Shown here one piece after another: positions 11,267 to 16,760 of a stretch of DNA of 64,000 nt (its first letter is position 1; the number at the start of each line of letters is the position of its first letter). The position numbers were made by a program, and so were the translations under genes. The notes below the pieces were generated by a model. That model saw nothing but the letters and a program-made list of their open reading frames with translations. It was not told where the DNA came from and made no database searches. The stretch is from Clostridiales bacterium. Its GTDB lineage: Bacteria > Bacillota > Clostridia > Christensenellales > CAG-138. The stretch spans positions 2,118 to 66,117 of the forward strand of contig SFIR01000002.1 of the NCBI GenBank assembly GCA_004556165.1, in the 5' to 3' direction.

Positions 11267-12118
11267 ATGTACCTGCGCAGTTTTACTTTTCCGTCATCCG
11301 ATACCGAATTCGATTTCATACTATCGGTCAAACGCACCTGCTATGCTTCATACTATCCGTTCCGCGTGCTGGATAAGGACGATCCGACCTGCCTTGAATT
11401 TGAGCCAATAACGTTTTTGTACGGCGGCAACGGCTCGGGGAAAAGCACCGCACTTAATGTAATTGCCGAAGCTCTAAAACTCGATAGGGATACTCTGTTT
11501 AACAGAGGCTCGTTTTTTGAGGACTATATAGACTTATGCAGCTTTGAAACCTCGCTTGAAATTCCGGATAATCGCAGGATTATAACGAGCGATGATGTAT
11601 TTGACTATATGCTCAATATGCGTATGATAAATGACGGAATATCGACGCAGCGTGAACTATTGTTTAAGGATTATATTGATAGAAAGTATTCGTCATTCAA
11701 GGTGAATTCGATACAGGATTATGAGAGCTTGAAGCTGTCAAACAGCGCAAAGAGCAGAACACAGTCAAAATATGTTAAGTCAAATTTAATGCTGAATGTC
11801 AGAGAACATTCCAACGGAGAAAGCGCGCTGAAATATTTTACGGAGAAGATCGAAGATAATGGATTGTATCTTCTTGATGAACCGGAAAACAGTCTTTCTC
11901 CCGAAAGGCAGCTTGATCTGAAAAAGTATATCGAAGACGCGGCGAGATTCTTTTCCTGTCAATTCATAATCGCTACACATTCGCCGTTTTTATTGTCAAT
12001 AAAACATGCTAAAATCTACGATATGGAGGGCCGAAACGTATCGGTCAAAAAATGGACCGAGCTTAGTAATGTGCGCATATATCAGGAATTTTTTAAGGAA
12101 CACTCAAATGAATTTTGA
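11267..12118 (+). CDS. AAA/ABC-type ATPase (AAA_21-like), stand-alone
   Basis: Walker A 'GGNGSGKST', Walker B 'LYLLDEPENSLSP' and H-loop 'IIATHSP'. It starts 16 nt after the PBP stop and has a GGAGGA ribosome-binding site. Confidence 0.8.
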   Translation: MYLRSFTFPSSDTEFDFILSVKRTCYASYYPFRVLDKDDPTCLEFEPITFLYGGNGSGKSTALNVIAEALKLDRDTLFNRGSFFEDYIDLCSFETSLEIPDNRRIITSDDVFDYMLNMRMINDGISTQRELLFKDYIDRKYSSFKVNSIQDYESLKLSNSAKSRTQSKYVKSNLMLNVREHSNGESALKYFTEKIEDNGLYLLDEPENSLSPERQLDLKKYIEDAARFFSCQFIIATHSPFLLSIKHAKIYDMEGRNVSVKKWTELSNVRIYQEFFKEHSNEF

Positions 12119-14125: not shown

Positions 14126-14253
14126 AATCCGCCTCCGTGGTGTAGGGTTTCAAATCCGAAATCGAATTCATATAAATTATACCAACCATATGCACCCTTG
14201 TCAAGTTCAAACGCTTATTTACACCGCATTGACAAAATCGGCAAGGACTGGCT

Positions 14254-14673
14254 TTATTGATCGCAGTTCAGTGAAAGAGCCTTTTTACTGTTCTTTTTTT
14301 CAAAATACTGCTTAATCAAGTTGGAAAAGAAGTTGCCGCGTTCTTCTTCGTAAATCATGAGACCGATTCCGCAAATGAATTCCTGAATAAGTGGGGGATA
14401 TTGCTCATGACATGCCGGGAAAATATCGTGAAGCTTTGTATTATTGGGTCTGAACCATGCGCATTGAATTGCATATTGCATACACCGTGACGATTTCATC
14501 CTTGAAACACCGAAGCACTCATCGATCATGATAAATAAAGATCTTTTGCCGTTATAGTATTGCAGCGGATCCATAATGAACAATTGGATGCAGTATTCAA
14601 GATACCCGAATCCAAGCAGAGAAGGGTTTAATCCGAGCTCAATTAAACGCTCAGATACTGATTGTGATTTCAT
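14254..14673 (-). CDS. Spo0A C-terminal (DNA-binding) domain-only protein, no receiver domain
   Basis: 'LGFGYLEYCIQL' and 'SSRCMQYAIQCAWFRPN...IQEFI' align with Spo0A_C ('KGYLYLREAI', 'RVERAIRHAIEVAWSRGN', 'NSEFIA'). The ATG at 14673 lies 8 nt after AGGAGG. Confidence 0.7.
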   Translation of the reverse strand: MKSQSVSERLIELGLNPSLLGFGYLEYCIQLFIMDPLQYYNGKRSLFIMIDECFGVSRMKSSRCMQYAIQCAWFRPNNTKLHDIFPACHEQYPPLIQEFICGIGLMIYEEERGNFFSNLIKQYFEKKNSKKALSLNCDQ

Positions 14674-15011
14674 TATTCTGTTCCTCCTAATCATGGCTTG
14701 ACGCTTAATCGTCGCAAATATCATAACACAGACAAAAATTATTTACAAATCTGAAAATTATTCTCACGACATCCCTTAATGTTTAATGATTCTCAGAATT
14801 TCGACATAGAAAAAACTTTATTTTGAAAGTAAAAACGGTTCTCATATTGTAATCAGACAATAATATGCATTAGTTCAAACTCGGATAATCTATCTATTTG
14901 GACTAACTAATAAATAAATATATTTTGAAATGTTTGGATTCAGGCTGCCGGTAAACCGAGAAATCAAGGTTTTCTATAAGCGCTTGAAATCGCTTTTTAC
15001 ATAAAATCCCT

Positions 15012-15090
15012 ATGCATCAGAAATGATGCATACAGGCCGCTGACATGACTTTGTCAGCGGCCTGAGCCTTGAAAATCAAGACTTTTTTTA
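15012..15090. terminator. cluster of stem-loops (strong 12-bp GC-rich hairpin plus flanking small hairpins and T-run)
   Basis: ATGCATCA/TGATGCAT (15012-15031). AGGCCGCTGACA (15034-15045) pairs with TGTCAGCGGCCT (15052-15063). CTTGA-AAA-TCAAG is followed by ACTTTTTTT. The cluster lies about 170-245 nt downstream of the 15257 stop on the minus strand. Confidence 0.45.
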
Positions 15091-15256
15091 ATCCATGGTA
15101 CGAGTAGAATTATAGGACTTCAAGAAAAACGCTCATATCAATGGCTTGCGAGCAGTCAGCAAGAAGTATTTGCAATTTGATTACCAATTATTTTAACCCA
15201 AACTCAGTTCGGACACTGAAAAGCATTAAATTTCTTTAGCAGATAATCACTGAGAT

Positions 15257-16498
15257 TTACTGCAACCGAATAAGACGAGCCTTTAACGGACTGACTTTTT
15301 CCAATCGGCGCATATATGATTCAAATACTTCTGAATCAGCGGGATCAGTAGATTCTTTGAGCAATTCACATACCAACGCCAAATGATCTGCATCATCGTT
15401 AGTAGAAAGTTCAACAGCCCGTTTTGCTTTACTGAGCGCTAAAGGTATTTCCCCTAAATGCCTCAAAACAGTTGCATAATTATATAAATATGCCGGCTCC
15501 TCATCATCTAACTCTGTTGTTTGTTTTGCAACTCCTTGTGCTTCTTCAAACATCCTTGCGCCAGCAAGGAGACGTTGCTTTTGATTCAGGATTGAGGCAC
15601 GTTCCTTATTGGTTTGCGCTCTGCTAAGCGCTTTATCCATGATTTTTCCCATGGACTCCATGTGTGCCTGTTCTGAGCCTTGACGATTATAACATGTTAC
15701 TAAACATCCAATCGCTTCAAGAATTTTTGTAAAAGATTCTGTACCTATGGAATCATTTAGATATGATTCCAATTCAAACGAACCCTTTTCAGACCCAAGA
15801 GTTGTTAGTGCACAGAGTTTATCGAAAAAATATTCAAATGGTTGGTTTCTACAATACTCAAGCAATTCTTCTGCCAACTTAACTTGGTTTGTCGAATAGG
15901 CATAATGAAATGCTTCAGATGGTTCAAGTTGACGTAACAAATCATCAACCCCATCTGTCATGTTGTTGCTATTGCTTGTAAATGCTGATGTTATGTTAAA
16001 GCTATCTAACTTTTCAATAATTGTTTGTAGCATACTGTATAAGTCTTTAGAAGAAATTGTTTCTGCAGATTGATAATCATTACCTTCAAAAACAGTTATA
16101 AAAGAGCGGATTTGTTTTTTTGCTTCTCGACATTCAGAAGCATAATTTAAATCACCATAAAAGATAGTCCTACGTGAAATTGTATCAAAAGGAAGATCTG
16201 TCTTATGTTTTGCACACACAATGTATGGCAGACCAGTTTGATATCTCATTCCAAATTCATACATAACATTAGGATTTAATCCAGTTAAATCAATTATACA
16301 TAAATCAGCATTTTGTATCTTATCAATAACATCAGCATTTATATCGCTTGTCCCCACTATTTCGTCTGCTCGCTTAACGTCTAAGTTGTGAAGTTCTCCG
16401 ATTTCTTTTATCAGGGCAAGAAAGTTGTCTGCATGCTTGCGTTCTGGAGAATCTTGTTCTCCAATCGGGGAAACTACAAAACAAAAACGAGTATCCAT
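15257..16498 (-). CDS. orphan protein: N-terminal nucleoside 2-deoxyribosyltransferase-like Rossmann domain + C-terminal TPR-like helical domain
   Basis: 413 aa. The N-terminus 'CFVVSPIGE...ADLCIIDLTGLNPNVMYEFGMRYQTGLPYIV' matches the NDT-like pattern (ADLVIADLTG.NPNVFYELG...KP) as I recall it. The C-terminus 'PAYLYNYATVLRHLGEIPLALSKAKRAVEL' is TPR-like. It has its own promoter and ribosome-binding site. Confidence 0.6.
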   Translation of the reverse strand: MDTRFCFVVSPIGEQDSPERKHADNFLALIKEIGELHNLDVKRADEIVGTSDINADVIDKIQNADLCIIDLTGLNPNVMYEFGMRYQTGLPYIVCAKHKTDLPFDTISRRTIFYGDLNYASECREAKKQIRSFITVFEGNDYQSAETISSKDLYSMLQTIIEKLDSFNITSAFTSNSNNMTDGVDDLLRQLEPSEAFHYAYSTNQVKLAEELLEYCRNQPFEYFFDKLCALTTLGSEKGSFELESYLNDSIGTESFTKILEAIGCLVTCYNRQGSEQAHMESMGKIMDKALSRAQTNKERASILNQKQRLLAGARMFEEAQGVAKQTTELDDEEPAYLYNYATVLRHLGEIPLALSKAKRAVELSTNDDADHLALVCELLKESTDPADSEVFESYMRRLEKVSPLKARLIRLQ

Positions 16499-16531
16499 AC
16501 TGCATTTTTCCTTTCATTAGAGTCTTTTTAA

Positions 16532-16560
16532 TTGTAGTACTGAGATTCTATAATGTCAAT
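16532..16560 (-). promoter_or_regulatory. sigma-A consensus promoter of the islet gene
   Basis: On the minus strand: TTGACA (16560-16555), 17 nt spacer, TACAAT (16537-16532), about 30 nt upstream of ATG 16498. Confidence 0.6.
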
Positions 16561-16607
16561 AAGAAAAAAATCGAAAAAGTCGGTTTCTTATGATATTAAC
16601 CAATATG

Positions 16608-16640
16608 TTAAAAGAGGGTGAGCCCTATAAGAACTCACCC
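16608..16640 (-). terminator. rho-independent terminator of tRNA-Leu
   Basis: On the minus strand: GGGTGAG-11 nt loop-CTCACCC (16640-16616), followed by TCTTTT. Confidence 0.65.
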
Positions 16641-16641
16641 A

Positions 16642-16724
16642 TGGTGCGAATGGGGGGATTTGAACCCCCAAGCTTTCGCCGGCGGATTTTAAGTCCGCTG
16701 TGTATGCCGTTCCACCACATTCGC
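16642..16724 (-). tRNA. tRNA-Leu (anticodon UAA), CCA encoded
   Basis: The reverse complement reads GCGAATG-TG-GTG..CAC-A-GCGGA-CTTAAAA-TCCGC-(13 nt variable arm)-GGGGG-TTCAAAT-CCCCC-CATTCGC-ACCA. This is a full cloverleaf with a long variable arm. Confidence 0.93.
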
Positions 16725-16760
16725 ATAAAAAATATTTAACCCTTGCCGGCAGCGAAGAAT

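Follow-up and report, generated by a model that had tools for sequence, protein, structure and literature searches.

A glycosidase-TPR gene inserted at a tRNA-Leu site of a Clostridiales genome as a candidate anti-phage effector

In the two-gene BcTir/Tpr system of Bacillus cereus, the BcTpr protein has 415 residues, of which residues 1–189 were modelled as a MilB-like N-glycosidase and residues 190–415 form a 12-helix TPR domain (bioRxiv 10.1101/2023.05.26.542521). According to the same preprint, BcTpr, whose active-site residues are I10, M11, N80, P81, N82 and E86, depletes NAD+ and makes an isomer of cyclic ADP-ribose (cADPR), the N82A and E86A substitutions abolish both activity and defence, and the TPR domain modulates product formation (bioRxiv 10.1101/2023.05.26.542521). 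The combination of a MilB-like glycosidase with TPR was catalogued by Burroughs and Aravind (2020) as the 'core Tpr' architecture, and their 78 loci, in the part of the catalogue cited in the preprint, include 29 solitary genes and 28 with an adjacent TIR gene, mostly in Firmicutes, the remaining loci carrying SLOG, patatin or calcineurin genes (bioRxiv 10.1101/2023.05.26.542521). Here we describe a protein of 413 residues encoded at positions 15257–16498, on the minus strand, of a 64,000-nucleotide stretch of contig SFIR01000002.1 from a Clostridiales bacterium (hereafter the window), and compare it with these proteins.

Judging from sequence and profile comparisons, the 413-residue protein belongs to a sizeable stand-alone subfamily of this known glycosidase-TPR kind, with a distinct sensor module. 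We regard its gene as a credible anti-phage candidate, because a predicted nucleotide-cleaving domain is fused to helical repeats on an acquired cassette in a defence hotspot.

Other described systems resemble the protein in part. The TIR NADase effectors, such as Cap12/TIR-STING of CBASS and SARM1, appear to have a related fold, and SARM1 also couples a helical-repeat autoinhibitory domain to its enzyme domain. The 413-residue protein differs from them in having neither a Pfam TIR match nor a cyclase, STING or SAVED partner, and in that nucleoside 2-deoxyribosyltransferase (NDT), MilB and DNPH1 are its top structural and sequence neighbours. In Retron-Eco1 (Ec86), an NDT-like N-glycosidase serves as the abortive-infection effector and is restrained by the reverse transcriptase and the multicopy single-stranded DNA; in a comparison by description only, our locus differs in having no retron and a fused TPR domain instead. 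A single polypeptide joining a TIR-clade enzyme to TPR repeats is found in E. coli TIR-II, which was shown to defend against phage and also occurs in phages (Nat Commun 2024, PMC11350192). TIR-II, likewise compared by description only, is a functional analogue, collected through a canonical TIR annotation that is absent from the 413-residue protein (PMC11350192).

Predicted enzyme domain and TPR-like array

The protein can be divided as follows.

15257..16498, minus strand: coding sequence, 413 residues, identical to MDY3308526.1, a 'hypothetical protein' of an Eubacteriales metagenome-assembled genome
16079..16498, minus strand: predicted NDT/MilB/TIR-like Rossmann-like N-glycosidase domain, residues 1–140 (AlphaFold2, Foldseek, PDB-sequence profile, PADLOC PDLC00733, phrog_3634)
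16256..16276, minus strand: putative active-site motif N75-P76-N77-V78-M79-Y80-E81 (conservation, alignment with GYELG of Rcl, BcTpr mutants)
15956..16078, minus strand: flexible linker, residues 141–181 (AlphaFold2: helix at 150–168; 168–181 disordered, with pLDDT <50)
15260..15955, minus strand: family-specific TPR-like array of ~14 helices, residues 182–413, not TPR-S (AlphaFold2, Foldseek, profiles)

The full-length AlphaFold2 (AF2) model, built on an alignment of 120 sequences, had a pLDDT (model confidence) of 91.6. When searched against the PDB with Foldseek it returned only TPR proteins, and the N-terminal domain was therefore modelled separately (pLDDT 93.3). Residues 1–140 form a five-stranded alpha/beta domain with a flavodoxin-like Rossmann-type fold, in which strands 4–9, 39–43, 66–70, 92–97 and 111–114 alternate with helices, in line with the strand-helix periodicity that a preliminary description of this DNA had noticed in the first ~135 residues. 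The best PDB matches of the domain were Chroococcidiopsis NDT 8pqr (E 5e-6), MilB (TM-score 0.71–0.72; 0.71 for 4jem) and BcmB. Also found were DNPH1, TIR-STING 9lmq (TM 0.65) and the TIR domain of SARM1, with the TIR-STING and SARM1 matches (TM 0.62–0.66) ranked under NDT and MilB, and flavodoxin-like azoreductases at lower TM. Among the viral models of BFVD, the best match was a family member annotated as 'CMP/hydroxymethyl CMP hydrolase' (TM 0.86); a Cap12/Pycsar TIR protein and NDTs came next. The NDT/TIR-related Rossmann-like fold which had been suggested for this domain is therefore borne out by the structural matches.

Searching PDB sequences with the single sequence was of no use, and a profile from which the C-terminal tails had not been removed (A2) was dominated by coiled-coil matches, so that a trimmed N-domain profile (A3) was needed. 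With the latter, Rcl/DNPH1 was the best match (E 0.0024) and NVMYE(L/F)G aligned on GVGYELG of Rcl, the element that carries the catalytic Glu of that enzyme. All motifs quoted in the preliminary description are present in the translation (CFVVSPIGE at residues 6–14, RADEI at 43–47, ADLCIIDLTGLNPNVMYEFGMRYQTGLPYIV at 64–94 and PAYLYNYATVLRHLGEIPLALSKAKRAVEL in the C-terminal part), and its proposal that the Glu of MYEFG is of the catalytic type agrees with this alignment and with the invariance of the residue in 109 homologues. These are diverse full-length representatives, 23–55% identical to the window protein, in which C6, C67, N77, V78, E81 and G83 are invariant. A further 21 positions are conserved in at least 90%, including R20, R43, D45, N75, R85, D105 and R110 and, in the TPR part, G235, N305 and N340. 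The two invariant cysteines lie in strands beta-1 (C6, 16481–16483) and beta-3 (C67, 16298–16300), where short prophage forms of the family mostly have Val at the second position; a redox or structural role of C6 and C67 is possible.

In Pfam, Nuc_deoxyrib_tr gave a sub-threshold match over residues 45–99 (0.018), sub-threshold PF05014 matches were seen in 37 of 68 family members, and no TIR family (PF01582, PF13676, PF08937) matched at E up to 1. PADLOC, a check that had been proposed earlier, returned a single match for the window protein, PDLC00733 'Effector/TIR' (E 9e-10), which was matched by all 68 members tested (best E 2.8e-16). The family is thus not covered by Pfam, and is seen in PADLOC v2 only through a CBASS effector model. 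In common with MilB/BcmB, DNPH1 (Rcl) and NDT (PF05014), the domain has a five-stranded Rossmann-like fold (TM up to 0.72) and a putative catalytic Glu in a YE(L/F)G element after strand 3. Unlike these enzymes, with which it has only sub-threshold Pfam similarity, it has a conserved set of its own (N75, N77, R20, R85, D105), is fused to TPR, and is encoded by a mobile accessory gene and not a metabolic one.

For comparison with the Tir-Tpr proteins we used two plasmid-borne pairs found by tblastn. The L. plantarum pair consists of a ThsB_TIR gene followed by one for a 423-residue 'TPR protein', and the Vibrio pair of a TIR_2 gene followed by one for a 412-residue 'TRAFs-binding domain protein'. 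The N-domains of these proxies align to the present family with an hhalign probability of 99.3% and carry DITTLNPNAIYELGIRH together with a strand CF(T/V)IMG(Y/F)G, which explains the active-site residues I10 and M11 of BcTpr. BcTpr itself resembles the window protein in length (415 and 413 residues), in the order of an N-terminal MilB-like glycosidase and ~230 residues of TPR helices, and in an identical NPNxxxE spacing, by which N80, P81, N82 and E86 correspond to N75, P76, N77 and E81; the two residues essential in BcTpr (N82 and E86) are therefore both conserved. A mobile or defence context is common to both. The differences are an N-domain identity to Tir-Tpr proteins of ~25–30%, a beta-1 motif SPIG in place of IMG(F/Y)G, an array that is not TPR-S/MAP3K_TRAF_bd, and the lack of an adjacent TIR gene. 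By these comparisons we assign the enzyme head, with high confidence, to the TIR/DrHyd clade as a homologue of the BcTpr glycosidase. The architecture can no longer be called undescribed, as the preliminary description had it, because glycosidase-TPR proteins were catalogued in 2020 and studied experimentally, as BcTpr, in 2023.

The C-terminal part was expected to be all-helical and TPR-like over roughly 210 residues. Its helical nature stands (helices cover residues 182–412 in the AF2 model), and at 232 residues the array is somewhat longer than expected. Similarity to TPR comes from TPR_12, sub-threshold in the window protein (E 2.6e-4), from TPR_8, TPR_17 and TPR_12 in family members (down to 1e-7), and from the full-length Foldseek search, in which all 19 matches at E up to 0.001 were TPR or TPR-containing structures. 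Conserved polar positions in the array are N305, Q306, R309, N340 and H372. The C-termini of the proxies are Pfam TPR-S (PF20308)/MAP3K_TRAF_bd (1e-17 to 1e-21), a type of match seen in only 2 of the 68 members of our family, at 0.005. A profile of the tail alone recovered essentially proteins of ~410–440 residues with the same architecture; the rest were a small number of short fragments and two weak matches to generic TPR. No B. cereus member was among them. On these profile comparisons, the tail is a different TPR array, specific to this family.

The cassette and its insertion site

The gene lies directly next to a tRNA-Leu gene, as the preliminary description had pointed out, and the locus has the following features.

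16642..16724, minus strand: tRNA-Leu, anticodon UAA (ARAGORN), with its 3' CCA end at the left junction of the insert
15096..16641, minus strand: inserted cassette of 1,546 bp, 36.1% GC, comprising a terminator-like hairpin, promoter, gene and 3' untranslated region (BLAST of L021 against L022, L023, L025, L027 and L028, and junctions)
16639..16650, minus strand: left att-like repeat TTCGCACCATGG, the last tRNA bases plus TGG (junction sequences)
15093..15104, minus strand: right att-like repeat CTCGTACCATGG, identical to the left copy at 10 of 12 positions
16616..16640, minus strand: GC-rich hairpin and T-run (GGGTGAGTTCTTATAGGGCTCACCC TCTTTT) at the left end of the cassette (terminator scan; also in L016, downstream of ThsB)
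16559..16531, minus strand: sigma-70-type promoter TTGACA-17-TACAAT, matching 11 of 12 consensus positions
16509..16514, minus strand: ribosome-binding site AAAGGA, ~10 nt 5' of the ATG, as read from the sequence
15033..15064, minus strand: perfect hairpin with a 13-bp stem just past the right repeat, at the right edge of the sequence shared with contigs carrying other cargo

In order to classify the states of the locus we collected, by exact-identity look-up, conspecific contigs with an identical downstream neighbour (a 389-residue aminotransferase-family protein); loci are numbered with the prefix L.

Site occupied by the gene, as here: L021, L026
Site empty: L022, L023, L025, L027, L028
Site occupied by other cargo (an E1-E2 ATPase): L024

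When filled loci are aligned with empty ones, homology is lost exactly at the CCA end of the tRNA. The insert is bounded by a 12-nt imperfect direct repeat (TTCGCACCATGG/CTCGTACCATGG), it carries no integrase, and the right repeat is followed by a degenerate copy of the terminator found downstream of the tRNA in the empty site. The ATG lies 143 nt from the 3' end of the tRNA, on the same strand, and the promoter is the one that the preliminary description had assigned to the gene. The left-end hairpin is part of the cassette, because it is also present where Thoeris genes lie upstream, and would insulate the gene from upstream transcription; that it is the tRNA's own terminator was considered and rejected on the basis of the L016 junction. 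The gene is also, as had been claimed, richer in AT than its surroundings: its GC content is 36.8%, against 46.1% for the window, and its GC content at third codon positions (GC3) is 25.6%, against 45–61% in neighbouring genes. GC is 0.33–0.39 across positions 14250–16750 and 0.46–0.53 in the flanks, and the remaining window has the housekeeping content of a spore-forming Firmicute (Rnf, acetate kinase, GerA, chorismate synthase, aminoacyl-tRNA synthetases, SMC, SRP54).

The same site receives other genes. In three sister contigs (L014, L016, L018) the gene for an identical protein follows a type I Thoeris operon at a distance of 199 nt (operon at L014:684-3223, L016:876-3424, L018:165-2734); the operon consists of ThsA (SIR2_2+STALD) and two ThsB_TIR genes (165 and 197 residues). 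Both ThsB proteins retain their Glu motif (W..YEI/DEI); since ThsA is present as well, this Thoeris is a complete system of its own, and the possibility that the two ThsB are dead TIRs of the BcTir kind was rejected. The junction between Thoeris and the gene again reads ...GCCA followed, across the boundary, by TGGGTGAG, which suggests that modules are stacked at one CCATGG-containing core of the tRNA-Leu site. Thoeris, with ThsA and ThsB in one locus, lies beside the identical gene in those strains only and does not occur in the 64-kb window. The left junction of the cassette was also sought in JGI metagenomes by exact-pattern scanning, with no match, and the whole island that contains Thoeris was thus not traced as far as the tRNA. 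As for other cargo, L024 has a heavy-metal E1-E2 ATPase and an HMA protein in the place of the cassette (L024:327-2657), and in L019 an HTH and DUF6442 pair directly follows the 3' hairpin of the cassette (L019:1640-2807).

A decayed allele, equivalent to approximately 15314–16498 of the window, is found on at least 23 contigs. In this allele codon 125 is changed from GAA to TAA, splitting the gene into open reading frames (ORFs) of 124 and 244 residues, and the last 57 nt are also missing, replaced by an insertion (L200-L202:5536-6735; L199:381-7115). In L199 the inserted DNA carries a UPF0236 transposase and, after it, a type III CRISPR-Cas module (MJ1673, Cas10-Cmr2, RAMPs). The comparison across related genomes that the preliminary description had called for thus reveals a strain-variable insert at the tRNA-Leu locus, with filled, empty, Thoeris-plus-gene and nonsense states. 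The cassette is a horizontally acquired 1.5-kb unit in a hotspot of defence genes, which also receives Thoeris and type III CRISPR-Cas, and its gene, as had been proposed, is solitary.

Some neighbouring features lie outside the insert. At 14254–14724 (minus strand) a 156-residue protein consists of the Spo0A C-terminal DNA-binding domain alone (PF08769, 3e-11), without a receiver domain; this gene lies in AT-rich DNA (39% GC) beside the cassette and is kept in empty-site strains. At 11267–12118 (plus strand) a 283-residue ABC-like ATPase (AAA_15/AAA_21) matches the PtuA, AriA and MAD3 defence-ATPase models (down to 5e-17), is much shorter than these proteins, and adjoins a penicillin-binding protein gene in all strains examined, those with an empty site included. 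Both were considered as partners of the 413-residue protein and rejected, because they are found in strains that lack its gene. At the far edge of the AT-rich block, GGGTTTCAAATCC (14145–14157, plus strand) matches the T-arm of tRNA-Leu (16656–16668) in inverted orientation at 12 of 13 positions; this could be a chance match or the relic of an older tRNA-targeted insertion.

Family members and their neighbourhoods

An exhaustive hidden Markov model search of 1.84 billion representative sequences gave 58,920 matches with E-values of 1e-3 or less, perhaps with generic TPR proteins among them, and 5,718 with E-values of 1e-30 or less; approximately 130 of the top 150 matches are full-length, with 400–455 residues. 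Full-length forms are spread patchily over Lachnospiraceae, Oscillospiraceae, Intestinimonas, Chitinophagaceae, Gamma- and Alphaproteobacteria, Actinobacteria and Verrucomicrobia. They are solitary and occur near serine recombinases, DDE transposases, a tyrosine integrase or PemK, between transposases, beside DUF5677, or beside terminase, recombinase, FRG and Abi_C genes. A 72%-identical homologue, P0006, lies between housekeeping genes directly after a tRNA-Pro (CGG), on the same strand, which lies ~380 nt before the ATG (L007:7548-9257). This points to tRNA 3' ends as sites where cassettes of this type land repeatedly. Clustering of all ORFs within 6 kb of the match at 80 genome loci revealed no conserved operon partner. 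Another homologue, P0069, neighbours a tyrosine integrase, beside which an inovirus-like element (Zot, Rep_trans) has inserted (L005:13066-19335); this element is absent from the otherwise identical loci L001-L004 and L006.

A larger set of proteins, ~250–330 residues long, has only the N-domain in common with the family. These short forms were found at no fewer than 562 loci in species-representative genomes, at 288 loci in IMG/VR and in 57 temperate phages in GenBank, of Streptococcus, Staphylococcus, Klebsiella and others, and match phrog_3634 (3e-42) and phrog_10872, both without an assigned function. One common tail, ~150 residues long and not of the TPR type, was found in 53 of the 77 focal proteins with comparable tails, all 53 being short forms. 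SpyM3_0974 of S. pyogenes prophage 315.2 (L189:3968-4747) is flanked by the repressor and cro and has the orientation of the integrase, and gp16 of S. aureus phage SA13 (L190:3992-4642) is an opposite-strand gene within the early region, positions that are typical of lysogen-expressed genes. The short forms of loci L040-L188 likewise lie in lysogeny modules or opposite-strand 'moron' positions of temperate phages. A full-text search by accessions of the phage homologues and by PHROG identifiers found no paper.

Possible functions of the gene

We consider abortive-infection defence to be the most likely function, with confidence only a little above even; the TPR-gated enzyme would cleave NAD+ or, with less likelihood, a mononucleotide. 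As a self-contained sensor-effector protein of the TIR/DrHyd(NDT)/SLOG clade, the protein would be kept inactive in the uninfected cell by its TPR domain, until the domain binds an infection cue, either a nucleotide-derived ligand or a protein of the phage, and the enzyme is thereby released or oligomerised. The activated enzyme would then cut the N-glycosidic bond of its substrate, and depletion of the pool would abort phage replication. NAD+ is proposed as this substrate because BcTpr with the equivalent substitutions, N82A and E86A, loses NADase activity, production of the cADPR isomer and defence.

Several points weigh against this proposal. Neither BcTir nor BcTpr alone protected E. coli, and the support drawn from BcTir/Tpr comes from an unreviewed preprint (bioRxiv 10.1101/2023.05.26.542521). 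The likeness to BcTpr rests on the L. plantarum and Vibrio proxies and on published residue numbers, and MilB and DNPH1, the structural neighbours, act on mononucleotides and not on NAD+. The window protein does not reach the gathering threshold of PF05014 (15.6 versus 28.8 bits). It has no Pfam match to TPR-S (PF20308) or MAP3K_TRAF_bd, and its C-terminal profile aligns to the C-termini of the proxies with an hhalign probability of <1%; as its array is not the TPR-S of the experimentally studied system, regulation may differ. Searches by phmmer with ThsA, ThsB and TIR queries found no partner in the 64-kb window and no such ORF within 10 kb in 92 homologous loci. The defence-island context, moreover, is circumstantial.

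The protein could alternatively be an incomplete module that relies on other loci for a TIR protein, or for a signal that TIR proteins make (for instance the cADPR isomers of Thoeris), and would therefore be inert in this window or work only in trans. BcTpr alone without protection, the adjacent TIR gene at 28 of the 78 catalogued core Tpr loci (mostly Firmicutes, as cited) and the identical gene directly after two ThsB genes in three sister contigs all point in this direction, and conserved polar TPR residues (N305, N340) would fit a small-ligand site. Nevertheless, the Thoeris genes lie outside the boundary of the cassette, which has its own hairpin and promoter and also occurs without them, and the adjacent Thoeris is already complete with ThsA and two Glu-motif ThsB. 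The absence of TIR and ThsA ORFs from the 92 loci argues against this explanation too, as do the lack of a conserved neighbour family and the 29 solitary genes among the 78 cited loci; we consider it unlikely, though the strongest of the alternatives. The preliminary description had likewise seen no partner gene, which agrees with the phmmer searches of the window and with the occurrence of the nearby small genes in strains that lack the gene. In a further reading, to which we give little weight, a conserved polar site of the distinct array (N305, Q306, R309, N340, H372) would sense a small nucleotide-derived alarm molecule, and not a phage protein, making the protein a free-standing 'plug-in' NAD+-depleting effector. 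The source of this molecule could be the protein itself, or TIR systems not linked to it, for example the Thoeris stacked beside the gene in sister strains.

Other explanations have to be weighed as well. An N-glycosidase of nucleotide metabolism, acting on (deoxy)nucleoside monophosphates or modified nucleotides like DNPH1, MilB and BcmB and using TPR as a scaffold, would account for the closest solved structures and sequence matches (DNPH1, MilB, NDT), and the conserved R20, R85 and R110 could bind a 5'-phosphate. We find this improbable for a gene that is missing or a pseudogene in many conspecific strains, is foreign in base composition, mobile or defence-associated in its contexts and patchy in its phyletic spread, and has no conserved biosynthetic or salvage neighbours. 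Carriage on mobile DNA, the PemK toxin and recombinases near homologues, and nonsense alleles that suggest a fitness cost would instead fit a toxin, a selfish addiction element or a weapon in another conflict (against plasmids or bacteria), that is, an NADase or glycosidase not triggered by phage. There is, however, no adjacent antitoxin-sized gene inside the cassette and no secretion signal or polymorphic-toxin architecture, and the prophage relatives occupy 'moron' positions in lysogeny modules, typical of superinfection defence, so that we give a toxin a low probability. That the protein regulates or antagonises TIR signalling, by breaking down or sequestering signals of the cADPR type so as to damp or tune Thoeris-like systems, is very improbable. 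The adjacency to Thoeris in some strains, the abundance of relatives in phages and a faint Pfam match of one family member to Tad5, a Thoeris inhibitor (E 0.006), would be in keeping with it. Most loci, in contrast, have no nearby Thoeris, the phage relatives lie in lysogeny or opposite-strand positions and not among early anti-defence genes, and the Tad5 match is single and weak.

If the protein defends alone, as abortive-infection defence by a self-contained effector would have it, the immune repertoire of the TIR/DrHyd clade would gain an NADase/N-glycosidase system that is compact and encoded by a single gene, and that comes from gut Clostridia, a group with few experimentally examined systems. 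The tRNA-Leu site offers a natural allelic series (empty, gene alone, Thoeris plus gene, nonsense allele). One enzymatic head would then be coupled to at least three tails, namely TPR-S, the TPR array described here and the ~150-residue tail of the prophage forms, and the short-form family of Streptococcus, Staphylococcus and Klebsiella temperate phages would become interpretable by extension. Should the plug-in reading be true, the cassette would be a portable, integrase-less immune unit of 1.5 kb that eavesdrops on the signals of other systems, and the tip of a very large prophage-borne enzyme family (phrog_3634/10872) of tens of thousands of sequences.

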